From Escherichia phage vB_EcoA_4HA11: a DNA stretch of 64,000 nucleotides. The position numbers and the translations under genes were made by a program. A model generated the notes under the pieces. It was not told the DNA's origin. It worked only from the letters and a program-made list of their open reading frames with translations, and did no database searches. Shown here piece after piece: positions 4,041 to 20,285 of the stretch. The DNA is taken from the sequence record MN445184; one strand, given 5' to 3'. Position 1 is the first letter of the stretch; each line of letters opens with the position of its first letter.

Positions 4041-4105
4041 ATGGAATGAAGTATACGGGGTTTATTGAAGAAGTAAACCCCGTTTATTGAATAAATTTTA
4101 AATTT
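4041..4105 (-). promoter_or_regulatory. sigma70-like promoter (GTTTAC-N17-TATACT) with AT-rich upstream element; copy 1 of a repeated ~60-bp element
   Basis: Near-identical element at 51261-51330; both sit 5' of a minus-strand gene start; contains palindrome TTTATTGAATAAA. Confidence 0.45.
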
Positions 4106-4340
4106 ATTTGAAGCGATCAGGAAGAGTGTCGTGAACCTCAGCGCTCAGCACCAGGAACTTGCCGTCTTTAGTAGGGAAGCAGTAGTCTTTCTTGATGTGG
4201 CGCATGTGTTCAGCCGTAGCCGCTACACAGTCGTTAGTCACGTCGGTCTTCTCACCTACCCACATACTGGTTTTGGTATTCAATGTACCTTGGAAGATAG
4301 TGCCCGTCAATGGGCTTGCTCCAATCTTTTTGATTCTCAT
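4104..4340 (-). CDS. hypothetical protein
   Basis: Start reset to ATG at 4340 (MRIKK) with GGGAG SD and ATGA overlap with the upstream stop. Confidence 0.5.
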   Translation of the reverse strand: MRIKKIGASPLTGTIFQGTLNTKTSMWVGEKTDVTNDCVAATAEHMRHIKKDYCFPTKDGKFLVLSAEVHDTLPDRFK

Positions 4341-4711
4341 AATTTCTCCCAAGTCCATGTTTGCGCCTTGGCTTTTCCGACTACTGGAACGTTACGGTGC
4401 ATGTTTCTGAAGCTGCCTGTCTGATAAAAACAGATCCTGATGCGTTCATTTTCGGTATGCTGTGCCCAAACATGATGACCGTCTGGGTATGGGTCGTGAC
4501 CAGCGCTACCTCCTTGTAGGGCTGTTTTGGTAACGACATAATGCCCTTGCATGTAACCGAAGAATCCCTCAGGGGTGATATAACCAGAGTCCGTTTGCCA
4601 ATCTCCCTTGCAATTAGAATACAAGAAATGCTTTGGCACCTGAGTTTCAACGGTCATTTCTTCTGTGAGGACGAACACATCGCCGACTTGAAGCAGTGGT
4701 AAATTGTTCAT
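4337..4711 (-). CDS. hypothetical protein
   Basis: 124-aa ORF, ATG, SD TGAGG. Confidence 0.55.
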   Translation of the reverse strand: MNNLPLLQVGDVFVLTEEMTVETQVPKHFLYSNCKGDWQTDSGYITPEGFFGYMQGHYVVTKTALQGGSAGHDPYPDGHHVWAQHTENERIRICFYQTGSFRNMHRNVPVVGKAKAQTWTWEKL

Positions 4712-4719
4712 AGTGGACC

Positions 4720-5160
4720 TCAGTTAATACGGAACAAATGTGGATAGCCACCAGGATGACCCTGGCCAGTAACGAACACGTCGAATTTTGAACCCTTGAT
4801 CAGGCCAGGCAGATTGCCGGAGTCCAGCAATTCACGGATCTGCTCCATCGCCAACATCCAGGTTTTGGCAGGTTCGGCTTCTGCTTCTCCTCGATTGAGT
4901 ACGAGTTCACCTTCGGAATAGAACTTCCCGCTGTCCTTCATATAGTACAACGTGATATGAATGTACTGAGGGGACGGAACTAAACGCCAACCGTCGTCGA
5001 TCAGATCTTGGCGATCATTGTCCAGTGACTGATAATCAATATCACCAGATGGCAAACCATAGCTGCGCATGTAGCGGAACTTCTCAACACGATCTTTCAC
5101 GTCGGAGATGAAGAACTCTTTCGTGGCAGGGCTGATGAATATGTATTTTCCTTTTGACAT
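4720..5160 (-). CDS. hypothetical protein
   Basis: 146-aa ORF, ATG, SD GAGAGAA. Confidence 0.6.
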   Translation of the reverse strand: MSKGKYIFISPATKEFFISDVKDRVEKFRYMRSYGLPSGDIDYQSLDNDRQDLIDDGWRLVPSPQYIHITLYYMKDSGKFYSEGELVLNRGEAEAEPAKTWMLAMEQIRELLDSGNLPGLIKGSKFDVFVTGQGHPGGYPHLFRIN

Positions 5161-5220
5161 GATGTAGTTCTCTCAGTGATAGACCATATCATAATAGCAC
5201 TGAGGACTGATAAAGAAAAA

Positions 5221-5868
5221 CTACATGAAATCTTTTACCCATTCAGGGTCTTCCATAGGAACCCAATTTTCGTATTTGAACATTTTGTACATGTTATAGA
5301 ACACTCGAATATTATTCCCGTCGTTCATCCGGTTACAAAATCGTTCATGCCCCCAACCTTCATTCTTCCATAATTGATAGAATTGGTCAGCCATAGCCCA
5401 AACGTGTTGGCATTTAGTTGCCCTTGGACGCTTCCATATCCTGATTTCATTCTGCCATTTGATCTGGGCTTGCCGTGATGTTTCCGAAAATCCAATTGGT
5501 TTGTTCTTTCCTCTTGTTACGTTAGACAAATGCGCCTTTGCTTCTTCGCTGAGTGGCCCAGTCCTTCCAAAATAAACGAGGGAACCATCTTTCTTAACAT
5601 GGAAACGATTTAAACAAAGAGGATTGGTGTGAACGGATTCGATCAATTGCGCTTCAACTTGGAGGGCTTCCTCTCCATCCCGACATAGCATTATCACTTC
5701 ATGGGTGAAGTAATCTGGTCCATGTTGTGATATAAGGGATTGGACAACTTTCGAGGACGTAAAATATTTTACCCAAAGTTCTTTGGGGTGACAGTTCTTT
5801 GCGTGACGACATCCATAATAGATGTGTCCATCTTTTGATTCTATTTTGTAAACGTATGGTTGGTTCAT
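5221..5868 (-). CDS. free-standing GIY-YIG homing endonuclease
   Basis: N-terminal YVYKIESKDGHIYYG...R GIY-YIG motif; sits beside the major capsid gene where T4 carries a seg-type endonuclease. Confidence 0.7.
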   Translation of the reverse strand: MNQPYVYKIESKDGHIYYGCRHAKNCHPKELWVKYFTSSKVVQSLISQHGPDYFTHEVIMLCRDGEEALQVEAQLIESVHTNPLCLNRFHVKKDGSLVYFGRTGPLSEEAKAHLSNVTRGKNKPIGFSETSRQAQIKWQNEIRIWKRPRATKCQHVWAMADQFYQLWKNEGWGHERFCNRMNDGNNIRVFYNMYKMFKYENWVPMEDPEWVKDFM

Positions 5869-5908
5869 AATTCCCCCTTTCAGGACATTATAACCCCATA
5901 CTTCTGAA

Positions 5909-5934
5909 ATAAAAACCCCGCCGAAGCGGGGTTT
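5909..5934 (-). terminator. intrinsic terminator after the major capsid gene
   Basis: CCCCGC-UUCG-GCGGGG stem-loop followed by U5 on the minus transcript. Confidence 0.65.
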
Positions 5935-5949
5935 GTAAGTCGTTGTTAA

Positions 5950-7272
5950 TTAAAACAAACTTTTGATTAAGCCCTTCCTGAAATACGGGTTGCTGTCTTG
6001 AGCAATACCGTCAGCAGTCACGTAAACCTGCGGGTCTTGGTTAGCCGGAATCTGTACGAACGGGTTAGCACAGATGCCGTAACGGGTTTTGAACGCCATA
6101 CGCGGAGCGAAGGTGGTTTCACCCTGGGTGCGGTACATTTCCAGCGGCACATACGGCGCGAAGAAGATACCGGCATCCAGCGCAGTTGCGCCTTTGTATG
6201 CCAGAGTGATATATTCTGCTACAGCATACGGGTCAACATAGACGCGCATACCGTTGGACAGAACACCAGCGAAGGTCTGGCCAGTCGGGTCAACAGCCAG
6301 TTTAGTGTTTTCCTGCAGAACCGGAGCATAGTCCAGCATGCCAGACATCGCCAGAGCGGATGCCACGTTCGGAGAACACAGAACACGGTTGCCTTTACCA
6401 CGACGGGTGTCAACACCGATACCGTTCGCTTCAACTTCCAGCATGAAAGTCAGGAACTTCCATTTTTCCAGCGCCCAACGACCAGAGATGTCCTGCGCGA
6501 TATCAACAACACCGTTGGTGCCGAATTTTTTGAAGCGAACAGCACTGAAGTTCATGGTGCGGATGAATTCACGGTTCATTTCCGCCTGAATTTCAGTTAC
6601 CATCACGTCAGACAGGATATTATCCACGTCTTCGCCGTGAATTGCCATCATGTCCTGACGCAGTTCATGGCTGTAATCAGCATACAGGCCGCGAGACTTG
6701 GCAGTAACGGTCGCTTTCTGAACAGTAATACCAACACGCGCCCAAGGGTTGGTGGTAGTACCCAGCAGTTCAGCGTCACTTGACGGCATACCTTTACCGA
6801 TAGTGGTCACGACAGAGCCGGAACCTTCGATTTCAGCCTGACTAAAGCCTGACGGGTCGCCAGCCTGTACAGTACCATCACCGGAATAGCCGGAATCGGC
6901 TTCCTGCATGAACAGTTCTTTACGAGACTGTGCGGTGTTGGAACTGTCACCAACACCCTGGCGAGCGCGCAGTGCAAAGATCTGACCGTCAGGACCAGAC
7001 AGCGGCTGAACACCGAAGAAGTCCATCGCGATGTTGATCGGCGCCAGACGTTTTGCCATGTCGATCAGAACTGGCTGCCATTTACCGACAGTGCTGTTCA
7101 CAGAACCAGGTGCGTCAGATTCGCCCAGGTTTTTTGCGTTCCATTCAGCCTGGTTCTGCATCAGACGGATGGTTACGTTTTCGGCAGACAGAGGTTGAAT
7201 AGCTTCAGATTCTTTTTGGAGAACTGGCAGCCACTGTTTGCGCATTTCTTCGGTTACAAGTTTCTTAGTCAT
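5950..7272 (-). CDS. major capsid protein (T4 gp23-like)
   Basis: Blocks matching T4 gp23 from memory: SGPDGQIFALRA, RVYVDPYA, DAGIFFAPYV, FKTRYGI..NPF; ATG start. Confidence 0.9.
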   Translation of the reverse strand: MTKKLVTEEMRKQWLPVLQKESEAIQPLSAENVTIRLMQNQAEWNAKNLGESDAPGSVNSTVGKWQPVLIDMAKRLAPINIAMDFFGVQPLSGPDGQIFALRARQGVGDSSNTAQSRKELFMQEADSGYSGDGTVQAGDPSGFSQAEIEGSGSVVTTIGKGMPSSDAELLGTTTNPWARVGITVQKATVTAKSRGLYADYSHELRQDMMAIHGEDVDNILSDVMVTEIQAEMNREFIRTMNFSAVRFKKFGTNGVVDIAQDISGRWALEKWKFLTFMLEVEANGIGVDTRRGKGNRVLCSPNVASALAMSGMLDYAPVLQENTKLAVDPTGQTFAGVLSNGMRVYVDPYAVAEYITLAYKGATALDAGIFFAPYVPLEMYRTQGETTFAPRMAFKTRYGICANPFVQIPANQDPQVYVTADGIAQDSNPYFRKGLIKSLF

Positions 7273-7324
7273 GATGCTCGTTCCTTACATTGATATTCAG
7301 TTAAGTTGAAATTACTTAGTAGTT

Positions 7325-7352
7325 CAAAATCAAGCCCCCTTTCGAGGGCTGT
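7325..7352 (-). terminator. hairpin between scaffold and capsid genes (weak terminator)
   Basis: AGCCC/GGGCU stem with U-rich tail on the minus transcript. Confidence 0.35.
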
Positions 7353-7363
7353 GGCTGCTAAAA

Positions 7364-8203
7364 TTAGCCGTTCAGCAAAGCACTGATCTGGCGACGGACG
7401 GCTTCGTTGACTTCTTTGCCAACTTCGTCTTTGTCATCATCGTCATCGTCATCATCGTCGGCTTCACCTTCTTTCTTCGGTTTTTTACCTTCTTTGATGT
7501 CTTTTTCAGACTTGTCGCCATCCGGCTTGCCTTTTTCATTGTCTTTGCCGACTTTATCAGAGAAGTCATCTTTGCCTTCTACCAGGTTACGGAAGGTGCG
7601 CACACGGGATTCAAATTCAGACTCGGTCTGGAATTCAATACCTTCCAGCAGGTTGACAACAGTGTCTTTCTTGGTGTCAACCATACCTTCACAAATACGA
7701 TCAATGACATCATTGCGCTGGCGTTTGGTTTCACTTTCTTTGAGCTGAGCCAATTCAGTATTGGCAATGCTGGCGCGTTTCTCTGCTTCAGCCAGGCGGT
7801 TGGTGAGAGCTGCAATCTGACCGTCTGGGTCAGTGGCGAAACTAACACCTGCTTCTTTCAGAACATTAGAGAAACCAGTGAGGAAGCGTTCAGCAGCTTC
7901 GGTTTTGATCTGAGCGTCAATGGCCGGAGCATTTTTGTTAGCCCATTCTTCAACAACCGCGTTGAGGAACGAATCAACTTTTTCCGCCAACTGAAGAGTG
8001 AAATTTTCTTTAAGGTCTGCGACTTCTTTCTGGTGGGCTTCTACCAGAGTCAGGCGCTCAACGTTACCAGCCGCTTCAGTTTCTTGAATAGCTTGCAGAC
8101 GGGCGGCTTCAACTTTAGATTCCAGCAGACCAGATACTTTGTCCAAGAAATCGGTGCTGAGGCCATTAACGCCTTCAAACAGTTTTTGCAATTCAGGTTT
8201 CAT
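7364..8203 (-). CDS. prohead scaffold protein (T4 gp22-like)
   Basis: Position between protease and capsid genes; alpha-helical charged sequence; poly-Asp C-terminal tract. Confidence 0.65.
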   Translation of the reverse strand: MKPELQKLFEGVNGLSTDFLDKVSGLLESKVEAARLQAIQETEAAGNVERLTLVEAHQKEVADLKENFTLQLAEKVDSFLNAVVEEWANKNAPAIDAQIKTEAAERFLTGFSNVLKEAGVSFATDPDGQIAALTNRLAEAEKRASIANTELAQLKESETKRQRNDVIDRICEGMVDTKKDTVVNLLEGIEFQTESEFESRVRTFRNLVEGKDDFSDKVGKDNEKGKPDGDKSEKDIKEGKKPKKEGEADDDDDDDDDKDEVGKEVNEAVRRQISALLNG

Positions 8204-8249
8204 GATAGTTTCCTTCTGAACGATTTTTCAGTATTTAGTGAGCTGAATT

Positions 8250-8918
8250 TCAGCCCAGATGATTCAATGCTGCATCAAGGCGGCGCAGGAAGTCGTCTTC
8301 TACTTGAATATTGGTTTTCACCAACTGGTCTACAACTTTCCCTTTAACATCACGAGGCATCCAAATACCCGAAGCCTCATCAAGCTGCCATTCAACAGAT
8401 TCACTCACAGCCTTAACATAACAAACTTGTCCAGAAGGACGGTCGACTGCATCAACAGCGGTGAGCATAAAGCCAGGTTGAACGTCGTCATAACCGTTTA
8501 CCGACTTGGTCTCACCCAGACCACGTGTAGACACGGCCAGATTGAAGTCTGCTTCAGCCAATGCACGTATGATTTGGCCTTTTGGTGTATTTAAAATTCG
8601 CGCCCGACCGATGGCATTAGTGCCTTCCCAGAGAAGGGATTCGGTTTTGAGCGCTGCTTCCACCAGATTAGGGAAAGGATAGTCAGGATGTGTGACTTCA
8701 CCGATTGCGCGACGATCTTGGATATACTCTTTGTCGTATGCTTCGACAGCAGGAATACCCACTTTCTGCAGATCATAGTTACGCCCGTTACGGTTGACTT
8801 GGTTACACATCACAAACGGACCTTCGATGAACATGGCCTTCCCACCAGTTGAGGTTGTGACCTCACCGATTTGAAGATCCTTCCCTATCGCTGTGATCTC
8901 ACGCAACAGTTTCATCAT
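8250..8918 (-). CDS. prohead core protease (T4 gp21-like)
   Basis: Matches to T4 gp21 from memory: VNRNGR, GEVTHP, GRARIL, VSTRGLG, VDAVDRPS. Confidence 0.8.
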   Translation of the reverse strand: MMKLLREITAIGKDLQIGEVTTSTGGKAMFIEGPFVMCNQVNRNGRNYDLQKVGIPAVEAYDKEYIQDRRAIGEVTHPDYPFPNLVEAALKTESLLWEGTNAIGRARILNTPKGQIIRALAEADFNLAVSTRGLGETKSVNGYDDVQPGFMLTAVDAVDRPSGQVCYVKAVSESVEWQLDEASGIWMPRDVKGKVVDQLVKTNIQVEDDFLRRLDAALNHLG

Positions 8919-8925
8919 AAACTCC

Positions 8926-9243
8926 TTACTTGTTCTTACTCAGTCCCATCATTTTGCGGAACTTCATAGCCTTTTTCTTGCGGCGCTCGATTTTACGTTG
9001 ATAGCCCATTCCCATACGCTTTTTAGAGCGGAGGGCTTTGCGGTTGCCGATCTTGCGAACACGACGTTCGCTGGCGTCCATAACTTCACAACGTGAACCA
9101 TCAGCCGACAATTTGAACCCAGGGGCACATTTCAAGCGGCGGCGGCGTTTACCACGAGCGTTCACTTTATCGATGACTCGCTGCTCGTCCATACGAGAGG
9201 CCAGGAAATCAGCGAACGTGGCGATCTCTGTGATTTCCATCAT
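8926..9243 (-). CDS. basic prohead core protein (gp68-like by synteny)
   Basis: 105 aa, very basic C-terminus, ATG with AAGGAGA SD, between portal and protease. Confidence 0.5.
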   Translation of the reverse strand: MMEITEIATFADFLASRMDEQRVIDKVNARGKRRRRLKCAPGFKLSADGSRCEVMDASERRVRKIGNRKALRSKKRMGMGYQRKIERRKKKAMKFRKMMGLSKNK

Positions 9244-9251
9244 GCATCTCC

Positions 9252-9422
9252 TTACTGGCCGTTGTTGTTTGAATTCATATCAGCTGCGATAGAATCCAGA
9301 ACATATGCTGTGCCTTGGTTTAATAGTTCTTGACTACGTGCATCAAGTTCCATGTTGCATTCTGCAACAGCAGTTTCAGTGTCACCGTCAATTACTGCAC
9401 GAACGATATCAATTGCGCTCAT
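9252..9422 (-). CDS. small acidic protein (gp67-like by position)
   Basis: 56-aa ORF below the ORF-track size cutoff; ATG with GGAGA SD; ACTAAATA motif upstream. Confidence 0.4.
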   Translation of the reverse strand: MSAIDIVRAVIDGDTETAVAECNMELDARSQELLNQGTAYVLDSIAADMNSNNNGQ

Positions 9423-9463
9423 GATTTTGATCTCCGAATTAATTTTCTATATTTAGTTGAACT

Positions 9464-11146
9464 TTAAATACTATCGTCTGTTGAACCAGAGAATGGGATA
9501 GTCTCAGGTTTAAACTTCAACGGACTAACATCTGAACCGCTATAATTGCCAGTTTCATCTGCTTGAACCTTCGGATAGAGACCTTTCTTCTTCTCTTCCG
9601 CGATCTTCGTTTGTTGTTCTTTAACTTCTTCATCAGACATACGCAATACATTTCTCATGACGTAGTCTATGGAGAAAATGGAACCAACAAATGGCTCAAC
9701 AGTGTTCAATGAAGCCAGACGATCATTCAAGATAGCGTTTTCTTGTTGTTCACGAATGTAACTATCGGATGTGAATTCAAACTTTATAAACGGTTTGATC
9801 TTCTCATTCCAATCCTTTTCATCCGTAACGCCTTTCAAAATTAACTGGCGGCGCAAGAATTCCATAAAGAAATGGGAGTAACGACGACGTAACCCAGCAC
9901 AGAACTTGCTGAAACGCAGCTCTTCCTGTGTAATCTCCGCGAGGTTGGAACCCCCAATGTTAATAGATCCTTCCTCTTGGAGGCGGCTCTTAGGGATCAT
10001 TAGAGCATCATAGAGTTTTTCACGGAAATAGTTCACGTGATCCATTTCGCCCAATTGATTCCCACCCCCAACAGTCGCAATCTCTGTAGCATTCTGACCT
10101 TCGCGGCGCGGCAACCAATAATCCTCTGCAATACCCATAAGATGGGCATTACCTGTTATCTTACCAGTGGTGCGGTCATATGCGTTGCGGTTTTTGAATT
10201 TACCCATCATCATGGTCATGTATTCTTCAGCAGATTTCTTACCGAGAGTACCGACGTCAAGATAGAATGCGCGTTTCTCAGGGGCGCGAGTGATGGCATA
10301 AATTACAGTCGCATCTTCAGTCGTAACCAGGTTGTTCAACGGACGGATAGCAGGATTTAAAAGGCCTGGGACAATACCATTGGCCAATGGCTCTTCACCA
10401 CTATCGATGTAAACAATGCTTTCGTCATCGAATACGAGTTCTTGTTGTGAAGGTTGGAAGTTTTGAGAAGTACCTGATTGACCAGTGAATTGGTTTCGAT
10501 TATAATTCGGATTGTAATAGTATTTCAGCGTTACAGATTCGATCGCTTCTATACCACCTTCACGCATTGCCTTTTCAACGATGTACACAGGACGAATACA
10601 ACGAGAATCCAGCATGACCAATTTCTTGATCCCGCCCTTCTTATTCGTTGGGTCAACAATCACATGATACGCTTGTCGACCATCTACATACCATTTCCGA
10701 ATCTTTTGATACGCCGTATTTTCAAAATCCATCAAATGAATCACTTCTTTGAAACATTCGGTGATAGATTCTTTGACTGATTCAGAAATACCATCAACTT
10801 TGTCAAGATTGACTGTCACCGGAGTTTCGTCTTCCTCACATGTGACAACGTCATTAACAATGATGTCCACAGCTTTGCGGATTTCTGGCTGCTGGGCCAT
10901 GGACTGATATTCTTCCACAACTGTTTTAACGCTGAGAAGTTCACTCTCAACGCCAACATAGTTGTAGGTGTTTGCACCGCCCTGAAGGATTATAGAACCG
11001 TCTTGAGCATCGTCCAGAGCAACAACTGTCGCCTTGGTGAGCAACAATTCATCTTGTTTTTGGGCTAACTTATCGGTGTCGACTTTGGCATTGACTAAAC
11101 CGCCGCCACCAAACAAACCGAAGAACCCCATGCCGTATCCAGCCAT
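9464..11146 (-). CDS. portal protein (T4 gp20-like)
   Basis: 560 aa, ATG with GAGGA SD; position between tail tube and prohead genes. Confidence 0.8.
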   Translation of the reverse strand: MAGYGMGFFGLFGGGGLVNAKVDTDKLAQKQDELLLTKATVVALDDAQDGSIILQGGANTYNYVGVESELLSVKTVVEEYQSMAQQPEIRKAVDIIVNDVVTCEEDETPVTVNLDKVDGISESVKESITECFKEVIHLMDFENTAYQKIRKWYVDGRQAYHVIVDPTNKKGGIKKLVMLDSRCIRPVYIVEKAMREGGIEAIESVTLKYYYNPNYNRNQFTGQSGTSQNFQPSQQELVFDDESIVYIDSGEEPLANGIVPGLLNPAIRPLNNLVTTEDATVIYAITRAPEKRAFYLDVGTLGKKSAEEYMTMMMGKFKNRNAYDRTTGKITGNAHLMGIAEDYWLPRREGQNATEIATVGGGNQLGEMDHVNYFREKLYDALMIPKSRLQEEGSINIGGSNLAEITQEELRFSKFCAGLRRRYSHFFMEFLRRQLILKGVTDEKDWNEKIKPFIKFEFTSDSYIREQQENAILNDRLASLNTVEPFVGSIFSIDYVMRNVLRMSDEEVKEQQTKIAEEKKKGLYPKVQADETGNYSGSDVSPLKFKPETIPFSGSTDDSI

Positions 11147-11213
11147 GATCTAAGTCCTCAACGTTTTCTTGTAATTAGTGAGGGGGAATAACATTCCCCC
11201 AGCACCGAGGACA

Positions 11214-11747
11214 TTACAATGACTTGTCAGAAACGGCTTGGAAATAACGCAAGTCGACAGTGAACTGTGTGTAAGAGTCCATTGCCGACATATCGAGTTC
11301 CAGTTGGCCGAGGTTTTGAGGCCAGCCGCCCTGTAAAGTCCATGTCTTAGTCACGTTGTCATTCGCGTCCAGAAGTTCCATGATGATATCACGGAAATAA
11401 TCATCTGGATTCGCGCTGGCGCGGTTGTTTTCACTACCGTTGATGAATTGCTGCCACACTTCAAAAGCATTGTATGGAGCGTTGTTCACCACGTTAATGA
11501 ACGTCACAGGAAGCGCTTCGAAACGACGATCCCCTGGGAACGGAAGTTCACGACCACCCCAGGGCACCAGAATTTCGCCCAGCTGACCTGTTGGGGTGTT
11601 GGTGGTTACAGCCAGCAAGGACACGTCACGAATTGTGTCGGAACCAGCAACAAAAGAAGGAAAGTTTACAGTCACACGCCAGCGGTGTTGGCGTTGTACG
11701 CCGCCCCCTCGTGACATGGCTGCGCGAAACTCATTGACTGTCGCCAT
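11214..11747 (-). CDS. tail tube protein (T4 gp19-like)
   Basis: 177 aa; C-terminal GGWPQNLGQLELD...FTVDLRYF resembles the gp19 C-terminus; synteny. Confidence 0.7.
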   Translation of the reverse strand: MATVNEFRAAMSRGGGVQRQHRWRVTVNFPSFVAGSDTIRDVSLLAVTTNTPTGQLGEILVPWGGRELPFPGDRRFEALPVTFINVVNNAPYNAFEVWQQFINGSENNRASANPDDYFRDIIMELLDANDNVTKTWTLQGGWPQNLGQLELDMSAMDSYTQFTVDLRYFQAVSDKSL

Positions 11748-11777
11748 TTTTATATCTCCAAATAAGAGTACACAATT

Positions 11778-12236
11778 CTAATTAGTCGTCAATCTTTTAA
11801 TCTTCATGGAAGAAAAATCAAATCCGTGGTCAACATTGCTTAAAACGGGTTCGATTTCACACAATTCCCAACGGGGATCTATGAGAGAAACAAGACCAAT
11901 GTGTTCACCTGTGGATGTCAATTTTGCTGCAGTTTTACCCAGCATATGACTTCCATCATTACCGCCTTTATTCATGTTGTAACCCATCTCATAAGAATTA
12001 TATTGAGAGATGAGTTGCTTCTCTAATTCCCATTTATGGACTTCATCGGTCTGAGCAATTACAACGAAAGTAAATCCAGATGTTCCATACTTACGCATGG
12101 CATCATACAATTCACTTTGGACTCCATGATGAAAAGCATTCGCAAAATGCTGATCATATCTTCGTTGTGGGTCATTGGTCACACCGATGTAGACCTTTCC
12201 ATTAGTTATCGTTTCAATTTTGTATGCGTATATCAT
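11778..12236 (-). CDS. free-standing GIY-YIG homing endonuclease
   Basis: MIYAYKIE...GKVYIGVTND...R motif; inserted between tail sheath and tail tube genes. Confidence 0.7.
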   Translation of the reverse strand: MIYAYKIETITNGKVYIGVTNDPQRRYDQHFANAFHHGVQSELYDAMRKYGTSGFTFVVIAQTDEVHKWELEKQLISQYNSYEMGYNMNKGGNDGSHMLGKTAAKLTSTGEHIGLVSLIDPRWELCEIEPVLSNVDHGFDFSSMKIKRLTTN

Positions 12237-12262
12237 TCAATAACTCAAATCAATAAGACAAA

Positions 12263-12287
12263 GGAAAACCCCGCCGAAGCGGGGTTG
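12263..12287 (-). terminator. intrinsic terminator after the tail sheath gene
   Basis: Identical CCCCGC-UUCG-GCGGGG hairpin plus U-run. Confidence 0.6.
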
Positions 12288-12292
12288 GTCAT

Positions 12293-14188
12293 TTATGAAG
12301 CAGCAACGATGCCGCCACCGGATTCGATTTCGCTGAACTCCATATCTGGTCGAACTGCAGCAAAATCCAAATAAATCCAGTTAATGCTGTACTCAGGCTT
12401 CAACCAAATACCAGCAACCATTTGGTTTGCCGCAATGATATCAGCAGTGTTGTTGTCTTCATCACATTTGACTTTACCATCGTAAATCGCGCCCATATTT
12501 GCCAGCTGGCGAATATATGGACGAACCGCATTGCTGAACAGACCACGTGTAAACGCGTCATTGTTCTCACCAAGATAGTATTTGGCGATTGCGGCGATGT
12601 TCTGCTCAGCCATGATGAACAGGCCACGAACGTTGATACGGTCAAACGCCGACGGGCGGGTCAGGCCAGTTTTGTCACCATACAGGACGATGCCTTCATT
12701 GGAGAAGGTTACGATGCTGTTGATCTGGTTGCGGTACAACACAGCACGTTCATCAGAAGATGCAGACCACGCCATTCGATTATAGTTGTTGTATTTACCA
12801 CGGTTGTGGAACGCCGGAGATTTGTAGATACCCGCGATTTCAATGCTTCGCGCCCAAACACCTGCGGTGCCACCACAAGCCGGAATCCAACGCATTTTGT
12901 CGTTGTACTTGTCGTACACATATGCCCAGTTATCATCCATGAAGAAATAAGAAGAGTCGCGAACAAGGCTTTCACGCCAAGCAACGACATCATCCATTTC
13001 ACGACCACGGTTGCCAACAACCGTATCACGGAGCGGGGATACGAAAGATACGGTATCTTTTCGCTCAGTAGATAAGTCGATCAATGCTTGTTGCTCAATC
13101 AGTTCTTCACAGTACGCAAATACTGGCTTCGCATCATATGCTTCAGCATTGTTCAAGACTTGGATAGCTGCCACGCGGTTGATGTTATAATCGTCTACGC
13201 CGCCTTCTAATTCAACGACACCTGCAACCAGTTCGCTCGCGAAGGTATACACCCAATTTGAAGTATCGTTGATCACGTCTTTGAAGTACGCATTCGCGCC
13301 ATCGGATTTTTTAGAACCCTGGGTGTTCTGCATCAGTTCGTATTTTTCAATGATGGAACCAGAAGCGCCAACAGTAGTGATTACGGCTGTTGCAGTCAGT
13401 CCTTTATCATCAGGAACGATAGCTGTAACGGCCTGAGGACCGATAGCTTTATGGGTCACGATGACAGTGTTGGACTTCACGACAACAGAAGAATAAACAC
13501 TTGTCAGGGAAGTTAGCGCTGTACCGATTTTGGTTGCCAAAGTGGCTGGAGTATCAGTATCCAGATATGCGATATCTTCACCTGCCACACTGATGGTGCC
13601 AGCAGCAGTAGCCGTACCAGAAACGGAGATACGGTCAACCTGACCGACTGCGCCAGCAGAGTCGGTAATGCGGCCAACTTTGTCTACGACAACTACATGG
13701 AATTCACCAGACTGAGGTGCGTATGCAAAGTTATTACGGAATTCCCAAGTCGAGAACCCAGCAGCATCACAAACATTGATAGCAATATCATTACCCAGGG
13801 AACCTGGATAACGACCAGTCCAAGTGATGGACGCCGAAGGACTTGCTGTTTCAAAATCCAGTTTGTTTTTGATCGCAATCGCTGTCTGACCTTTGGTAAC
13901 AGAGTTCTTGGCTAGAGGACCAACAACACGGGTCACCCATGCCATAGAGCTGTAAGACAAAAAGTCCGCGATTACGAGAAAATCGGTCGCAGTACTGTCG
14001 TTGGGTTTGAAGAATTTCTTCACCAAACCTGTCTCACCACCAGTCACCAGCACTGGAAGTTCAACTTCACCCCATTGAAATTTGCCGACGGTCGCGCCCT
14101 GAACAACAACGGACGGAGACGTCTGAAGCGTGGCATCACGCTCAGTCCACTGAACGGACGGCGCAACGCTGAAGCTTTGAGTTGCCAT
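12293..14188 (-). CDS. tail sheath protein (T4 gp18-like)
   Basis: ORF-track start at 14221 is TTG; first ATG at 14188 has GAAGGAA SD; size and synteny match gp18. Confidence 0.8.
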   Translation of the reverse strand: MATQSFSVAPSVQWTERDATLQTSPSVVVQGATVGKFQWGEVELPVLVTGGETGLVKKFFKPNDSTATDFLVIADFLSYSSMAWVTRVVGPLAKNSVTKGQTAIAIKNKLDFETASPSASITWTGRYPGSLGNDIAINVCDAAGFSTWEFRNNFAYAPQSGEFHVVVVDKVGRITDSAGAVGQVDRISVSGTATAAGTISVAGEDIAYLDTDTPATLATKIGTALTSLTSVYSSVVVKSNTVIVTHKAIGPQAVTAIVPDDKGLTATAVITTVGASGSIIEKYELMQNTQGSKKSDGANAYFKDVINDTSNWVYTFASELVAGVVELEGGVDDYNINRVAAIQVLNNAEAYDAKPVFAYCEELIEQQALIDLSTERKDTVSFVSPLRDTVVGNRGREMDDVVAWRESLVRDSSYFFMDDNWAYVYDKYNDKMRWIPACGGTAGVWARSIEIAGIYKSPAFHNRGKYNNYNRMAWSASSDERAVLYRNQINSIVTFSNEGIVLYGDKTGLTRPSAFDRINVRGLFIMAEQNIAAIAKYYLGENNDAFTRGLFSNAVRPYIRQLANMGAIYDGKVKCDEDNNTADIIAANQMVAGIWLKPEYSINWIYLDFAAVRPDMEFSEIESGGGIVAAS

Positions 14189-14230
14189 AATATCATTCCT
14201 TCTCGGTAGAGTTTCGCTCAATTTGAAAGA

Positions 14231-14238
14231 TATTTAGT
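14231..14238 (-). promoter_or_regulatory. late-promoter-like box ACTAAATA upstream of tail sheath
   Basis: Minus-strand ACTAAATA (T4 late consensus is TATAAATA); same octamer recurs before other late genes. Confidence 0.4.
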
Positions 14239-14240
14239 GA

Positions 14241-16451
14241 TCAATTCTTAAACCACTCATCCATGGTCATCCCTGACATTTCGTTGAAAACTTGAATACC
14301 CCCGAAACCAGGCAAATGCTCAGTTTCGGATGGGGTGTCTCCAACGACTAAACCGCCAAATGGGAATACCTGCTGAGATTCAGTTGAAGACATTCGGTTT
14401 CTCATGTCCTGAGAAATACTTGTAGATGTCAAATCACTGAACCATTCTTGTTTTACCGCCCATGAATATAAGACCAACGGCATGACACAGTCATCGTGAC
14501 AACCGTCATCGGCTTCATACCGAGCGCCTTTGAACACAAATGTACTGAGTTCATCTATCGTGTCCTGGTCTTCTATCACCAACATTTCTTTCTCAATGAG
14601 CGCTTTCAGGTTAGCACAACCGATAGATCGGACTTTTCTGTTGGTATTGATACCAGGTTCCGGTTTACGCCCACCAATCCGTTTCCCCGTCCCTTTGTTA
14701 TCTGTTGATGTGAATATGATTTCTGGATATTCTATCTCTTGATAAAGAATTGTAATAACCTGACCGCCGACGTCGTTGTTTGTTTCAACAAGGACAGGAC
14801 ATTCCCCGTATTCGGTGCACATATCAGCTATCGTGTATGCATACATCATAGGAGGTATCGTATTATTCCTGTACTTGGCTGCTATGACATGCGGATATTC
14901 AGTTATATCCAGAATTGTTAAGACGGAATAATCTCCTTCCACCCCCTTCCCAGTGTCCGCAATCCCAAAGTAGAGACGTTGTGGGTCGTATTCCTTATAA
15001 ATCTTGGTGAATTCATTAGGTTCCCGATACAACTTGGACGTCATTTTATCTAAGCATTTGGCCGGAATCAATGAACCCACGGAACCACGGAACTTAATGC
15101 CAAATTCTTGATCGAAACGAGCATCCCCCAGACGGGCACGTTGTTTGGTTTCCCAATCTGGATCTTTGGTATATGCCGGAACCTTATACCATGGGACTTC
15201 AGTTAGGTGGAAGTCGTTGTATTGTGGATGGCGCGGATCTGCTTTGGTGACAATATCATAGAACAACCCTCGCTGGCCTTTCGGAGTACTTGTCAAAATA
15301 CAGCGTGATGTATCGGCAGATGCAATGGCTGGGAAAGTTGATTCCCAAAATTCAAAGTCGTTTTCGATAAACGCGACTTCGTCAACGTACAAGAGCGATA
15401 CAGAACGACCACGGATGGAGTCCGAAGACGTGGCATAAGCGTATATCTTAGAACCATTTTCAAACTCTATCAGGGTAGAACCAAACTTCTCACAACCCTG
15501 CTGAAGGAAGAATGGAAGGTCTTGGTATGCCTTTCTGATACGGTCAAGAATTTCTATCGCTTGTTTCTCTTTGTTTGCCAGTACTGCGATTTCCTTATCA
15601 GAATGGAACATCGCATACCAAAGAAGAAACGCCGCCACCACGGTCGTGTTATGACTGAGAAAGCCATTCGTGTAATAACGTTGATCACTAGATTTGACCT
15701 GCAGATCGTACATATGGTGATATTCACCAGTCTGCCAAATCTCACGGATTTCTTCTGGACCTTCTGTCGTCATGATGTATGACCCAGCATTCAGGTCTTT
15801 GGCAAATGTCTCCTTCATGTCCGGAGTGAAGAACATATGTTCATCGGCCACGTTAATTCGCCTTCCGGTAACTGTGACAATAACGAATTCCGCATATTTC
15901 TTCGTCTTATGCGCTGCGATAACCGGAACCCAGCCACTATCGGATTGTACAAAGTAACGTTTGCCGAAGCGGCTGTCCACGAACTTGTCATGGTTGCCAA
16001 TGGTATTCAGCGGCACAGCGTGGTTGACGTCCTCGAATCGGCTGTGAAGCTCCCCTATGGTCAGGAGCAACTCCTCTTGGCTGAGAGTATCGTAAACTGT
16101 GACAAGCGTGTCGCCTTTTACACATTTTCCAGACTGACGAGCCTGGATGACCGCATTGAATCGATAGTCCTGAAAGTCATGGAACAACTGTTTCTGATAA
16201 TCATGCATATCGAAAAGGATAAAGCCTTTATCGATCGTGGTTATCTTGTAATAGTTGGCGGCGAAGTAGTGTGCATCCATAGAACATTCAACGAATTCGT
16301 CTTCTTGTTCATCTGTCAGCATTAACTCGACTCGAGGAGCACGCACAGAAGGTTTGCGCATAAACGTTTGGTCCATACGCAATTTCACATCGTCTATTTT
16401 GAACCCCGTTTTAATTGGGGCATATTCTATATCACGCTTCTGATACGCCAT
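14241..16451 (-). CDS. terminase large subunit (T4 gp17-like) containing a mini-intein
   Basis: Walker A QARQSGK|TTVVAAF split by an insert beginning Cys and ending His-Asn before Thr; rest of protein aligns with gp17 ATPase/nuclease. Confidence 0.9.
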   Translation of the reverse strand: MAYQKRDIEYAPIKTGFKIDDVKLRMDQTFMRKPSVRAPRVELMLTDEQEDEFVECSMDAHYFAANYYKITTIDKGFILFDMHDYQKQLFHDFQDYRFNAVIQARQSGKCVKGDTLVTVYDTLSQEELLLTIGELHSRFEDVNHAVPLNTIGNHDKFVDSRFGKRYFVQSDSGWVPVIAAHKTKKYAEFVIVTVTGRRINVADEHMFFTPDMKETFAKDLNAGSYIMTTEGPEEIREIWQTGEYHHMYDLQVKSSDQRYYTNGFLSHNTTVVAAFLLWYAMFHSDKEIAVLANKEKQAIEILDRIRKAYQDLPFFLQQGCEKFGSTLIEFENGSKIYAYATSSDSIRGRSVSLLYVDEVAFIENDFEFWESTFPAIASADTSRCILTSTPKGQRGLFYDIVTKADPRHPQYNDFHLTEVPWYKVPAYTKDPDWETKQRARLGDARFDQEFGIKFRGSVGSLIPAKCLDKMTSKLYREPNEFTKIYKEYDPQRLYFGIADTGKGVEGDYSVLTILDITEYPHVIAAKYRNNTIPPMMYAYTIADMCTEYGECPVLVETNNDVGGQVITILYQEIEYPEIIFTSTDNKGTGKRIGGRKPEPGINTNRKVRSIGCANLKALIEKEMLVIEDQDTIDELSTFVFKGARYEADDGCHDDCVMPLVLYSWAVKQEWFSDLTSTSISQDMRNRMSSTESQQVFPFGGLVVGDTPSETEHLPGFGGIQVFNEMSGMTMDEWFKN
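15648..16124 (-). other. mini-intein (159 aa, no endonuclease domain) inside the terminase P-loop
   Basis: Starts CVKGDTLV (Cys1), ends ...NGFLSHN followed by Thr; extein junction reconstitutes GKT; boundary codons checked against the sequence. Confidence 0.8.
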
Positions 16452-17112
16452 CGTCTTCTTCCTTCACATCAACTGTTTCACCATCAATGATTTCATCTTC
16501 TGGTTGTTGTGCGGCCTTTGCTTGTGCTCTTTCTTCAGCGCGACGGCGGGCATCTTCAATCGTCTTCAATAAATCGCGAGAAGATCGCGCCTTTTTCCCA
16601 ACCGATACTGTTGTTGTTCCGTCTGGTGAAGTTGTAACATCCACTGTCGTGTCATCAACAGGTGGTTCTTTATCACCTGTTACTGCCTTGATGGTTTTCT
16701 GGTTTTCCATCAAGTCTTTATTCAGACCGCGCATGAGTTCACCCAATTCACGGAAAACAGAAAATGCTCGCGGAGCTTCTGTGGATGCAGCCAATTTAGC
16801 GGCTTGTCCCATCATGAACATTGTGGCTTCTTGCATGGCATATGTTGTGTCGCGTATCCGTTTGTAATCCGTTGTAGCATCAGTGTCCGCAAACTCAGGT
16901 ACTTTGGATTCCTTGGAAGCAATATCCTCCAATGAAGGAGGTTCAGGAATCGGCTGATACCCTTCCGGACGTTCACCAAACCATTCACCTGTATTTTCAT
17001 CGAAGTCAATACCTGGACGAGGGGCGACAGCCTCCATCGCCTCCTTCCCAACTTCGTCTCGGGCGGTCACTGCATCAAGTGTGGCGAGTAACCTTTCTGA
17101 CATATTGCTCAT
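16432..17112 (-). CDS. putative terminase small subunit (gp16 position)
   Basis: Immediately upstream of and overlapping the large terminase; start reset from TTG to ATG with GGAGGA SD. Confidence 0.45.
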   Translation of the reverse strand: MSNMSERLLATLDAVTARDEVGKEAMEAVAPRPGIDFDENTGEWFGERPEGYQPIPEPPSLEDIASKESKVPEFADTDATTDYKRIRDTTYAMQEATMFMMGQAAKLAASTEAPRAFSVFRELGELMRGLNKDLMENQKTIKAVTGDKEPPVDDTTVDVTTSPDGTTTVSVGKKARSSRDLLKTIEDARRRAEERAQAKAAQQPEDEIIDGETVDVKEEDDGVSEA

Positions 17113-17114
17113 GA

Positions 17115-17813
17115 TCAATCCTCCGGATGATGTATGCCGTCTTTATCAACTCGGAACCACTCAGGAAGTTCCGACCATGGCATGTTCAAATCATTAGACA
17201 TTTCAATAATTATCTCTTTGATGACGTTTGGATCCCCACCGCCCGAACCATCATCAACCCAATAATCTTCTCCATAGATGTGACCATGTAATTGAAAATT
17301 GAATGAACAATCTATGTGTGGTGATTCTGTTGCGTCCCCTTCCCAGTTGTCAGAAATCGTGTGATTTACCAACATTATCTTCACGTTCTGATCTTGAGAT
17401 AAAGTATCGTTGTCCTTTATCTGACAGTCAACAGAAGGAGTGAACACAGAATAAATTTGTTCTAATACTTGCAACATTTCGACCAATTTTTTAGTTCTGA
17501 TATTGTATTCAAAATCTATAATGATCGGAATGCGTTGTTTGGACCGTGCCGTAGCGGTCGATATTTGGTTGTGGTATGACTTCGTCACCTGTTTATTGAT
17601 TTCGAACTGACCAAAGGACATTGTTGCAAATGGCAGCATATTGGCTGGCACGTTCCTGTTGAGGTCATTACGGCGGCCAATGGCCATATGCAGCGGAATT
17701 TCCATCAAGCCACGTTCGGTTTTGACTTTTAAATCTGACATGATAGCGTTGAACACATGTATGTATTTCAACAATGATTCATGATAGAAATATTTTTCAA
17801 ATGGTCTGGCCAT
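17115..17813 (-). CDS. tail completion / sheath stabiliser (gp15 position)
   Basis: Synteny only (gp13-14-15-16-17 order). Confidence 0.4.
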   Translation of the reverse strand: MARPFEKYFYHESLLKYIHVFNAIMSDLKVKTERGLMEIPLHMAIGRRNDLNRNVPANMLPFATMSFGQFEINKQVTKSYHNQISTATARSKQRIPIIIDFEYNIRTKKLVEMLQVLEQIYSVFTPSVDCQIKDNDTLSQDQNVKIMLVNHTISDNWEGDATESPHIDCSFNFQLHGHIYGEDYWVDDGSGGGDPNVIKEIIIEMSNDLNMPWSELPEWFRVDKDGIHHPED

Positions 17814-17815
17814 GA

Positions 17816-18457
17816 TTATTCCCCGAAGTCGATCTTCATTTTATTGGGCGAAAGATCTTTCTCTATTTCGTCCGCAAATTGGTTATCCGTTTGCAGGCTG
17901 GCGTCTTTGTACACACCGTCTCCTTCCAGATCCTGCAATCGTTTATCAATATCGTCTATTTCAGATACACCTGTATCGAAATCTTCGTTACCGTATTGGA
18001 ACAACGTACATGGTAGGGAATATGTGTACCATTTCCCAAATTGCATGAATTCTTCATCGTTATTCGGGTTATTCACTTTAAATATTTTGTTAGCCATAGG
18101 CAGATATATCAAATCACCTTCTTGAGGCATTTGTTCAAGGCCTGGACCATTACCAATAACTTCTGAAAAACGACGACGAGCAATAGTGAATGTCACTTCA
18201 TCTTGTAATTGGATACCGCCGAACTTTTCCCACATCTGTGTGTTGAAGCCTTGATAATCCTGCATGTACACTTCGATGTCAAACGCTTGGTCGAATTTGT
18301 GTTCGGCCTCGTTTAAAATTGGGTATTTTTCAACAATAGAACGTGGAATATACTTGACATCAATCCCACGCAATTGTATCATCTCGACCACCAAGTCATC
18401 AATTAATTTTTGAGTCCCTTGGTGTGCAGTGTAATTGAAGTATCGAGAAGTAGCCAT
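17816..18457 (-). CDS. neck protein (gp14 position)
   Basis: Synteny only; ATG start; ACTAAATA box upstream. Confidence 0.4.
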   Translation of the reverse strand: MATSRYFNYTAHQGTQKLIDDLVVEMIQLRGIDVKYIPRSIVEKYPILNEAEHKFDQAFDIEVYMQDYQGFNTQMWEKFGGIQLQDEVTFTIARRRFSEVIGNGPGLEQMPQEGDLIYLPMANKIFKVNNPNNDEEFMQFGKWYTYSLPCTLFQYGNEDFDTGVSEIDDIDKRLQDLEGDGVYKDASLQTDNQFADEIEKDLSPNKMKIDFGE

Positions 18458-18515
18458 AATATTTTCCTCAAGATTTAAATATATTTAGTTGAATTTGTTT
18501 TTAAGGTGAATCAAT

Positions 18516-19226
18516 ATGATCGTCCTGACAGAAGGAATTGCTTCTAAAAGAATCAAATCATATGCTTCTTCTAGAGGTGGAATATTTCACGGATTTGTCG
18601 GTGGTAAATTTGTCACCAACCAAACTAAGTGTATTTTGTCTTGCGAATTTGGTCATGAATGGAACTCAGCAACTTATGCGAATTTGATAAATAAAGGAAG
18701 TTGGTGTCCTTCGTGTCGTGGAAACAAGAAGATCTCAAATGAAGAAGCTAAAATCAGGATATCGGAGTACGCCGTAAGCAACGGTGGTAAATTCATAAAT
18801 TTCATTGGCGGGAAGTACAAAGACAACGTGACAATTTGTGTCATGGAATGTTCTGAAACACACAGGTGGGAATCCAGGTACGGTAATTTAGTCAACAGCC
18901 GAAGTTGGTGTCCGTATTGCGCAGAATCGGGTTACAATTATTCTAAGGAAGGTTTCTTATATATTCTAGTCAACGACGAAGGTTGTATGAAAGTGGGAAT
19001 AACCAACTCACCTAAGAAACGCATAAATTGTTTAAGAAGCAGCACCCCGTTTGACTTCAACGTTCTAGAAATATTCAATTCAACCGACGGATTATTTGTT
19101 TCCAGGTTGGAAAGAATTGCCCATAGAATGTGTAAGAGCGCGGGATATAAGGATTTTGACGGTGCTACCGAATGGTTTGTATATGACGGGTCAGTCGTAG
19201 ATTTTATCAGAAATATTTTGAAGTAG
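18516..19226 (+). CDS. homing endonuclease-like protein (GIY-YIG/T5orf172-type nuclease with tandem zinc-ribbon modules)
   Basis: Two repeated Cys/His modules (C..C..H..SWCP.C) then GFLYIL..KVGIT..R; opposite strand to neighbours. Confidence 0.55.
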   Translation: MIVLTEGIASKRIKSYASSRGGIFHGFVGGKFVTNQTKCILSCEFGHEWNSATYANLINKGSWCPSCRGNKKISNEEAKIRISEYAVSNGGKFINFIGGKYKDNVTICVMECSETHRWESRYGNLVNSRSWCPYCAESGYNYSKEGFLYILVNDEGCMKVGITNSPKKRINCLRSSTPFDFNVLEIFNSTDGLFVSRLERIAHRMCKSAGYKDFDGATEWFVYDGSVVDFIRNILK

Positions 19227-19291
19227 CCATGACTTTACCCTCAATTTTGAAGGTATTTAGTCAATCATTAATTCTTTTGAGGAATTGATAA

Positions 19292-19504
19292 ATGAAGGTT
19301 GAAGATATTAAAGAAACTCGTGACGGAAGGCGTGTGAGAATTATCTGTGTAGATGCTAAAATCGCCGATGGTTCATATAACATTGTGGGTCTTATCAAAG
19401 GCGAAAAGGGAAATGATTTTATTGAATGGTGGGACGAAAAGAACGTGGTTGATGGTTATATTCTAGCAAATTCAGATCCTTCCGGACGCGACATCAAGTT
19501 ATAA
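19292..19504 (+). CDS. hypothetical small protein
   Basis: 70-aa ORF, ATG, SD GAGGAA. Confidence 0.45.
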   Translation: MKVEDIKETRDGRRVRIICVDAKIADGSYNIVGLIKGEKGNDFIEWWDEKNVVDGYILANSDPSGRDIKL

Positions 19505-19534
19505 AAAGAAAGGCGGGTTATCCCGCCTTCTCTT
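19505..19534. terminator. bidirectional terminator between convergent genes
   Basis: AGGCGGG-UUAU-CCCGCCU hairpin with U-rich flanks in both directions. Confidence 0.5.
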
Positions 19535-20285
19535 ATCCCATCATGAAATCAATGGGGTATTGCTGACCAGTACGCAATTCTTCCTCCAACCGCTCTATCT
19601 CGGTCTCGGCCTCACTGAACATACTATCACCATCCAGTTCGATACCACCAGGGAGACGGATGCCTCTTGCCTTCTTAAGCACCTCTGCCCAACGGCGCTT
19701 GACCAATGCAGTCGCATACGCTTTCAACCACATATCATTCCATGCTTCAGCGTTTTCTTCCGATTCGGGGTCGATATTTTGATAACAACGAAAAGCCAGG
19801 GTTTCATCAACAATGGCAGCAAACTGCGGGTAAAGGCGTCGCTGGAACTTCTTGTACACAAAATTACGGCGAACATTTAAGACGCTTGTGATATCCGACA
19901 GGCGTTGTTGCATGGAAACATAATCAATGAGACGAATAGAAACCAGCGCTGCTTTGGGGACAAGCATTGCTTGAGCCATTTGCCATTGAGGAGTTGCCCA
20001 GTTTCCGATTGACTCAATAGGAGGTCCAGGGATAACTTCAATCACATCGTCAATATCATCGGGAAATTCTATATACCCCTTGTCAATATCTTCTTGTTTA
20101 ACTTGGTACAGGAAGAACGCATCTTGGCTACCATCACGATGATATTCCCAAAATTTCTGCAGAGCATCATCGACTGCATCTTCGACTTGTGAACTGTCAA
20201 GGTTAATTTGGATCACAGGAGCGCCCAATTTACGCAAGACATAATTCATAAAAGATTTTTTGTCTCGAATCTTATTGACGGCCAT
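19533..20285 (-). CDS. neck protein (gp13 position)
   Basis: Start reset to internal ATG (MAVNKIR) with AAGGGGAA SD; synteny. Confidence 0.45.
   Translation of the reverse strand: MAVNKIRDKKSFMNYVLRKLGAPVIQINLDSSQVEDAVDDALQKFWEYHRDGSQDAFFLYQVKQEDIDKGYIEFPDDIDDVIEVIPGPPIESIGNWATPQWQMAQAMLVPKAALVSIRLIDYVSMQQRLSDITSVLNVRRNFVYKKFQRRLYPQFAAIVDETLAFRCYQNIDPESEENAEAWNDMWLKAYATALVKRRWAEVLKKARGIRLPGGIELDGDSMFSEAETEIERLEEELRTGQQYPIDFMMG

Follow-up and report, generated by a model that had tools for sequence, protein, structure and literature searches.

The stretch of DNA analyzed here, a 64,000-nucleotide (nt) window from Escherichia phage vB_EcoA_4HA11 (sequence record MN445184), carries on its minus strand a T4-like morphogenetic block in which three intact open reading frames (ORFs) are interspersed. 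These ORFs, which we call ORF1, ORF2, and ORF3 and which encode proteins of 215, 152, and 236 amino acids (aa), respectively, had been singled out in an earlier note on this DNA as homing endonuclease genes, and their coordinates and strands (Table 1) hold as given there. They do lie between conserved structural genes, as that note had it—ORF1 next to gp23, ORF2 between gp18 and gp19, and ORF3 between gp14 and gp13—with gp23, gp22, gp21, gp20, gp19, gp18, gp17, gp16, gp15, and gp14 making up the flanks of the three. Bases 4700-19600 match ~290 phage records, the best being Kuttervirus phages of Salmonella and Escherichia at 96-98% identity, which assigns the window to Kuttervirus in the Ackermannviridae (the group of Vi01, CBA120, Det7, and PhaxI). 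Twenty relatives from six genera supplied the homologous region for junction maps, and database-wide counts were made among ~275 records for the ORF1 family, 291 region-matching records for ORF2, and 272 records for the ORF3 site. Further paralogues of the three endonuclease families were not found elsewhere in the 64-kb window. Two matching records, OR844942.1 ("Enterococcus phage Efm 3-10") and MN871475.1 ("Pseudomonas phage Pa-sanjiao"), share 99.6-99.9% identity with this Kuttervirus region and probably bear a wrong name or contain contaminating sequence.

The domain content of the three proteins agrees with the GIY-YIG nature predicted for ORF1 and ORF2, and refines what had been predicted for ORF3. 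ORF1 is an ORF in its own right between the gp23 terminator and the next gene, not part of an intron or intein. It matches PHROG 314 "homing endonuclease" (5.7e-32), falls slightly under the cut-off of 25 for the Pfam SegE_GIY-YIG model (23.7 bits), and displays the motifs VYKI...IYYG...R...E...N. Its catalytic domain (~aa 1-95) is followed by a NUMOD3-like linker (~aa 105-135; a weak match, E=0.032) and by an 80-aa C-terminal region that matches no family and is held in common with a second endonuclease type. ORF2, likewise an ORF of its own outside any intron or intein, matches Pfam GIY-YIG (PF01541) over the curated cut-off (E=1.3e-11) and PHROG 5123 "homing endonuclease with GIY-YIG motif" (1e-93), and it aligns with the catalytic domain of I-TevI (1MK0/1LN0), with the residues at the conserved GIY-YIG positions of I-TevI present. 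ORF3 had been described as a zinc ribbon joined to a T5orf172-like nuclease; the T5orf172 domain stands (MUG113/T5orf172, 1.7e-9 and 3.3e-7), whereas the zinc ribbon is better described as a CapR-type treble-clef finger that is present twice (PF21817, 3e-13 over two stretches), all of these matches being over cut-off. The Cys/His ligand sets of the two fingers are C43/H47/C64/C67 and C112/H116/C132/C135. The nuclease domain, which is predicted to have a GIY-YIG fold, retains every invariant residue, and nine ORF3 homologues likewise keep Y149, R169, E199, H203, and T-E-W at 218-220. For both ORF1 and ORF3, no model matched in NCBIfam and a sequence search gave no match among solved structures. 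The ratio of nonsynonymous to synonymous divergence (dN/dS) is 0.03-0.13 in between-lineage comparisons of all three ORFs, which therefore all encode proteins constrained by purifying selection.

Table 1. Features of the window, with one endonuclease gene of its relatives
Feature	Position	Strand	Basis or context
ORF1, predicted free-standing Seg-like GIY-YIG homing endonuclease, 215 aa	5221-5868	-	Pfam, PHROG, motifs
ORF2, predicted free-standing GIY-YIG endonuclease, 152 aa	11778-12236	-	between gp18 terminator and gp19 promoter region
ORF3, two CapR zinc fingers and T5orf172 domain, 236 aa	18516-19226	+	Pfam
gp23 last nine codons (RKGLIKSLF), recoded in endonuclease-bearing genomes	5953-5979	-	
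gp23 intrinsic terminator	5913-5934	-	directly upstream of ORF1
gp18 intrinsic terminator	12267-12286	-	directly upstream of ORF2
gp14 codons 1-9, cassette-borne	18431-18457	-	ATG GCT ACT TCT CGA TAC TTC AAT TAC
Cassette-borne spacer	18458-18515		replacement upstream region and ribosome-binding site for gp14 (-), ribosome-binding site of ORF3 (+)
21-nt remnant of original gp14 5' end	19210-19230		reverse complement of ATGGCTACTTCAAAATATTTC
Candidate promoter, sigma-70-like match TTGACA-17-TATCAT, inside gp14, toward ORF3 and 70-aa gene	18354-18382	+	consensus match only
Conserved 70-aa gene	19292-19504	+	PHROG 4466
Apparent mini-intein in TerL (gp17), 159 aa, aa 110-268	15648-16124	-	Walker A insertion QSGK/C...SHN/T
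F-LimIX-type gene in relatives	L005 17704-18582; L008 14896-15774; L016 14896-15774		
gp23, major capsid protein	5950-7272	-	T4-like block
gp22 and gp21	between gp23 and gp20	-	T4-like block
gp20, portal	9464-11146	-	T4-like block
gp19, tail tube	11214-11747	-	T4-like block
gp18, tail sheath	12293-14221	-	T4-like block
gp17, TerL	14241-16451	-	T4-like block
gp16 and gp15	between gp17 and gp14	-	T4-like block
gp14, neck protein	17816-18457	-	T4-like block
gp13	19533-20342	-	T4-like block

The presence/absence comparison that the earlier note had suggested was run, and because all three sites are polymorphic in relatives, the ORFs are not conserved at the same positions throughout; empty, occupied, replaced, doubled, and decayed states are all found across the sites. 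At the gp23 junction, ORF1-family DNA occurs in 65 of the ~275 records (full length in 36) and an endonuclease-free arrangement in 99. The junction carries ORF1 in the window, S117, BPS6, SS9, and Klebsiella phage KP6, and divergent ORF1 alleles in Hercules_SET (78.6% nt identity) and 3384-D8 (74.6%), the latter two showing synonymous divergence (dS) near 3 within a genus whose backbones are there 96-99% identical. The same position is occupied by a 281-aa paralogue of ORF1 in pertopsoe, by a frameshifted copy of this pertopsoe type in PhaxI (L011, 2014-2861; 91% nt identity, two indels) that is a decaying endonuclease gene, and by a DUF559/Vsr-like enzyme in JA15 and SNUABM02. It holds no endonuclease gene in CBA120, Det7, Se-G, Se-J, aagejoakim, Gloob, SKML-39, and 0507-KN2-1. 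The gp23 terminator is kept in all relatives, with or without an endonuclease gene after it. Two comparisons speak to the history of ORF1. First, it is 97.1% identical at nt level to its counterpart in KP6, a Taipeivirus and thus a member of another genus, with a dS of 0.117 (dN/dS 0.09) as against 0.49 for the neighboring gp23 and 1.1-3.1 for gp22, gp21, and gp20, so that ORF1 has moved recently between genera. Second, ORF1 and the 281-aa pertopsoe-type endonuclease are identical in their last 49 aa and only 46% identical in their nuclease domains, and there is therefore a recombination joint within the gene.

The junction with ORF1 is also marked within gp23 itself. For the last nine codons of gp23 there are three versions, all fully synonymous, which are separated by 10-12 differences in 27 nt, codon-family switches for Ser, Arg, and Leu among them; the 120 nt before these codons show little or no variation. 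In 16 genomes the version tracks the endonuclease state perfectly: the eight endonuclease-free genomes sampled, from three genera, all have one common version, and the genomes with an ORF1-family gene have another. Linked synonymous versions of this kind are the expected mark of a target site shielded by silent changes, and these nine codons are probably the target or immunity region of the ORF1 family.

The ORF3 site, between gp14 and the conserved 70-aa gene, is uninterrupted in 223 of the 272 records and holds an ORF3-family gene in 48. In seven sampled genomes the empty junction is a spacer of 59-61 nt, and the 70-aa gene directly adjoins gp14 in empty-site genomes, which makes it a resident of the site that lies outside the ORF3 cassette. 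Three ORF3 alleles are found there: type A in the window, type B in SS9 (65.7% aa identity), and type C in Se-J (61% aa identity, 309 aa). PhaxI and EP75 are among the ORF3-bearing phages, and CBA120 is among those without ORF3. Type A is 93.8-94.5% identical at nt level across genera in which the neighboring genes are at 57-76%; relative to Dickeya phage JA15 and the Agtrevirus SNUABM02, its dS is 0.24, with gp14, gp13, and the 70-aa gene saturated. ORF3 thus has, like ORF1, moved recently between genera. Within Kuttervirus, the cassette is identical to that of pertopsoe over 18498-19296 (799 nt), and the flanks differ.

The boundaries of this cassette fall inside gp14. In ORF3-bearing genomes from three genera, a base-identical stretch begins about nine codons into gp14, where codons 4-8 read TCA AAA TAT TTC AAC in all seven sampled empty-site genomes, and the spacer that follows in the window is unrelated in sequence to the empty-site spacer. 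At the other end, a 21-nt remnant of the original gp14 start provides the last codons and the stop codon of ORF3 and makes a direct repeat, GAAGTAGCCAT, with 18447-18457. Since the end of ORF3 is a remnant of the gp14 start, the cassette must have entered within the first codons of gp14, bringing with it a replacement start and promoter region. Apart from a ribosome-binding site, a motif CTAAATA ~25-35 nt upstream of the gp14 start (within 18458-18500 in the window) is all that the cassette-borne upstream region has in common with the native one, and this motif is a candidate late-promoter element; the sigma-70-like match inside gp14 (Table 1) is a candidate promoter of the plus-strand unit. 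Pattern scans of IMG/VR for empty-site and recoded gp14 junctions gave nine matches, which add little independent sampling.

ORF2 presents a different picture. It is found in 206 of the 291 region-matching records, and the junction between gp19 and gp18 carries it in most Kuttervirus and Taipeivirus genomes as well as in phiMAM1. In Det7, PhaxI, and phiMAM1 it is accompanied by a second GIY-YIG gene. A different endonuclease occupies the junction in pertopsoe and Se-J, both within Kuttervirus, and in SKML-39, SNUABM02, and JA15, and the junction is empty, with a spacer of 80-81 nt, in the Agtrevirus Gloob and in phiEa2809. Compared with Taipeivirus, the dS of ORF2 (1.32; dN/dS 0.09) is close to that of gp18 (1.17) and gp19 (1.56), and ORF2 has therefore travelled with the backbone. 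It behaves as a long-established, almost fixed resident with long vertical descent, and not as a recent invader.

The mini-intein that the earlier note had placed in the terminase also withstands scrutiny. The insert starts with a Cys (C110), ends with H267-N268 followed by T269, and splits the Walker A motif of TerL (GK/T), and TerL of Erwinia phage phiEa2809 (580 aa) lacks it precisely and in frame, reading QSGK-TTVVAAF; T4 gp17 is likewise uninterrupted at this site. The excised segment scores 24.9 bits against TIGR01445 (intein N-terminal region; cut-off 24.5) and has E=8.6e-7 against Pfam Intein_splicing, yet is under that model's cut-off, so that model support is marginal on score and strong in context. 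The segment has no endonuclease domain. It looks like a class-1 mini-intein that would have to splice for the packaging ATPase to function and that cannot move by itself. Among 278 records with an intein at this site, 93 have the window-type allele (at least 90% identity) and 184 have other alleles (60-80%), and Kutterviruses harbor two alleles ~26% apart in nt sequence. The gp17 gene of Se-J is almost identical to that of the window and differs almost only across ~15550-16150; because the difference is confined to ~600 nt, the intein allele has been exchanged as a small cassette. In Aglimvirinae, a NUMOD3 endonuclease gene of the F-LimIX type (292 aa) lies between the genes for TerS and TerL, ~330 nt from the intein insertion codon, in contrast to the window, where gp16 and gp17 overlap with no insert between them. 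A free-standing endonuclease of this type might mobilize the mini-intein cassette in trans.

The earlier note had further regarded the region as a recombination hotspot, and this claim is only partly supported. It draws support from the cassette-sized exchanges and the flank variants linked to endonuclease genes, but mosaicism runs through the entire module, breakpoints also occur where there is no endonuclease gene, and ORF2 is not a recent arrival. The window matches S117 over 3500-10444 and Se-G over 10434-12454 without a single difference, and SS9 over 12174-15233 with one mismatch. Backbone switches do occur at the junction of ORF2 with gp18 (one) and on either side of ORF3 (two), but others lie inside gp20 (10434-10444), gp18, and gp17. 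A "HEG island" in the sense of Barth et al. 2023, i.e., more than 10 kb of exceptionally high nt identity shared by phages that are otherwise divergent, with endonuclease genes at both ends, was considered and rejected; over the stretch from ORF1 to ORF3, identity to Taipeivirus, Agtrevirus, and Limestonevirus is at backbone level (~60-90%), and only the endonuclease genes stand out.

Several side observations were made in and around the module. Patches at 86-91% identity occur in gp22 (7500-8000) and the 5' part of gp20 (10500-10750) in comparisons that are otherwise 98-100% identical, with no endonuclease gene nearby. The 146-aa gene adjoining ORF1 (4720-5160, minus strand; PHROG 4181) has two deep alleles within the genus, at 96-100% aa identity in some phages and 54-62% in CBA120, Se-J, aagejoakim, and pertopsoe, and beside it a 124-aa ORF (4337-4711, minus strand) is variably present in Kutterviruses, having been aligned only in CBA120, Se-J, S117, BPS6, aagejoakim, and Gloob. 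Elsewhere in the window, Pfam matches on the plus strand between 45975 and 49018 comprise an Sf6-type tail-needle-knob domain (45975-46493), a weak match to a PLP-dependent enzyme (47336-48529), and an ART-PolyVal ADP-ribosyltransferase domain (48569-49018).

Taken together, the three ORFs are very probably free-standing homing endonuclease genes that sit in intergenic gaps of the Kuttervirus T4-like module and spread by homing. When two related phages infect the same cell and one of them lacks the endonuclease gene, the enzyme encoded by the other would cut the empty allele, at the terminus of the neighboring essential gene or close to it. ORF1 would probably target the 3' end of gp23, ORF2 the spacer region of gp18/gp19, and ORF3 the 5' end of gp14. 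Repair by recombination would then transfer the endonuclease gene to the broken genome along with short stretches of flanking sequence that bear cut-resistant synonymous variants. Kuttervirus DNA carries hypermodified thymidines, which may block cleavage. That these proteins cleave DNA, where they cut, and that cleavage rather than general recombination drives their spread is what we infer from the comparisons above. A number of points weigh against this interpretation. Given the module-wide mosaicism, general recombination alone could shuffle small cassettes. Co-conversion could have carried the variant gp23 and gp14 flanks in from the donor lineage, with no selection for immunity, and the recoding of gp14, at 6 of 27 nt, resembles between-genus backbone divergence. 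The 21-nt remnant keeps part of the presumed ORF3 target intact in ORF3's own genome. ORF2 has only ~60 aa beyond its catalytic domain, with no family match and no recognized DNA-binding domain, and an empty ORF2 site was not seen within Kuttervirus among the sampled genomes. Finally, homing of T5orf172 genes has not been verified experimentally, according to Barth et al. (PMC10448857).

An alternative that we consider unlikely is that one or more of these genes, above all ORF2 and possibly ORF3, encodes a domesticated nuclease or DNA-binding protein that benefits the phage, possible roles being exclusion of co-infecting relatives, attack on satellites as by ICP1 Odn, or transcriptional control as by PLE CapR or in I-TevI autorepression. 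For ORF2, divergence in step with the backbone across three genera under a dN/dS of 0.09, and its presence in 206 records, are what makes this idea attractive, as a purely selfish gene would be expected to decay once fixed; however, its site is empty or otherwise occupied in relatives, including pertopsoe and Se-J, with no sign that the phage needs ORF2. For ORF3, the intact set of invariant nuclease residues, its absence from 223 of the 272 records, and its movement between genera argue against domestication, although the ICP1/PLE system has co-opted both T5orf172 and CapR domains (PMC10448857, PMC8096241) and ORF3 forms one plus-strand unit with the conserved 70-aa gene between two neck genes. 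As for exclusion of relatives, marker exclusion is a known by-product of homing and calls for no separate mechanism. It is highly improbable that the three ORFs are ordinary accessory genes (morons) shuffled by T4-like general recombination, with nuclease domains irrelevant to their spread, for although the whole of 3.5-21 kb is a patchwork of tracts from different relatives, with breakpoints inside gp20, gp18, and gp17, and nearby small non-nuclease ORFs are also variable (that at 4337-4711, and four small ORFs after gp23 in CBA120), at least four junctions each hold several unrelated nuclease genes (GIY-YIG, T5orf172, DUF559/Vsr-like, and NUMOD3) and nothing else, the 27 nt of gp23 adjoining the insert hold an extreme concentration of synonymous change, and ORF1 and ORF3 have crossed genus boundaries that their neighbors did not.

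Within the homing interpretation, a more specific proposal can be made for ORF3, which we offer tentatively and with some doubt: that it is an active T5orf172 homing endonuclease, traveling as a self-sufficient cassette of ~800 nt with a cut-resistant gp14 start, and that it has hopped among three genera of Ackermannviridae.

Comparison with known systems highlights both similarities and differences. Like the Seg proteins of T4 (SegD, SegE), ORF1 and ORF2 are predicted free-standing GIY-YIG genes in intergenic gaps beside essential genes of T4-like type. SegF and SegG of T4 are known for "intronless homing", and co-conversion of flanks and marker exclusion are reportedly established for the T4 Seg family. 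The seg-like placement put forward in the earlier note is borne out by segD, which lies directly after T4 gene 23, a position equivalent to that of ORF1 downstream of the major capsid gene; unlike segD, which is on the opposite strand, ORF1 is on the gp23 strand, and ORF2, with 152 aa, is much shorter than any T4 Seg protein. We rejected orthology of ORF1 and ORF2 to SegD and SegE (24-28% identity over ~70 aa of the catalytic domain), and the name "SegD" under which ORF2 is entered in the record of CBA120 does not denote orthology.

The closest parallel to ORF3 comes from ICP1 and other phages, in which putative homing endonucleases with CapR and T5orf172 domains lie beside essential genes (Barth, Dunham & Seed 2023, PMC10448857). 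ORF3 shares with the ICP1 genes an architecture in which CapR-type zinc-finger repeats precede a T5orf172 nuclease domain, a location adjoining essential structural or terminase genes, allele replacement at one site, and domain-level mosaicism, and differs in belonging to another phage family, the Ackermannviridae. PLE CapR, which is a repressor, differs from ORF3 in having no nuclease domain (Netter et al. 2021, PMC8096241). In the same virus family, Dickeya phage LIMEstone1 has 14 endonuclease genes, some of them at the junctions studied here (Adriaenssens et al. 2012, PMC3296691): F-LimVII after gp23 and F-LimVIII between gp19 and gp18, both of which are, unlike ORF1 and ORF2, DUF559/Vsr-like ("Hef-like") and not GIY-YIG. 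LIMEstone1 also has an ORF3 homologue between neck genes (93.5% nt identity), described in that paper merely as one of two hypothetical proteins inserted there (PMC3296691). TerL inteins are annotated in Salmonella phages Marshall and Maynard of the same genus (GenBank features), from which the one in the window differs in nothing essential, and are found in actinobacteriophages as well; phage Mooltan has one that was described, along with a GIY-YIG endonuclease, as a "selfish element" (PMC6486243). Because GenBank records of relatives carry the features "homing endonuclease", "GIY-YIG homing endonuclease", "endonuclease", and "intein" under our matches, the basic finding of the earlier note is correct but already known. 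What is added here is incremental, namely the cross-genus transfer, the recoded gene ends, the replacement of the gp14 start, and the swap of intein alleles. For TerL inteins, the new elements would be the two alleles ~26% apart within one genus and a swap confined to ~600 nt.

These results have several implications. For annotation, they support treating the three genes as selfish inserts rather than structural genes, and the long TerL as an intein-bearing precursor. For phage biology, they provide a well-resolved case of endonuclease genes reshaping the ends of essential genes, i.e., the tail of gp23 and the start and promoter of gp14, and show that such genes have passed from one genus to another in a family with biocontrol uses. 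The main value of the system is, however, experimental, since Kutterviruses with and without ORF3 or ORF1 share E. coli O157 and Salmonella hosts and thus offer a ready setting in which to study T5orf172 homing. If the proposal made above for ORF3 is true, these phages, with 223 empty sites on record, would represent the first donor/recipient pair defined in nature for a direct demonstration of T5orf172 homing and of its target.

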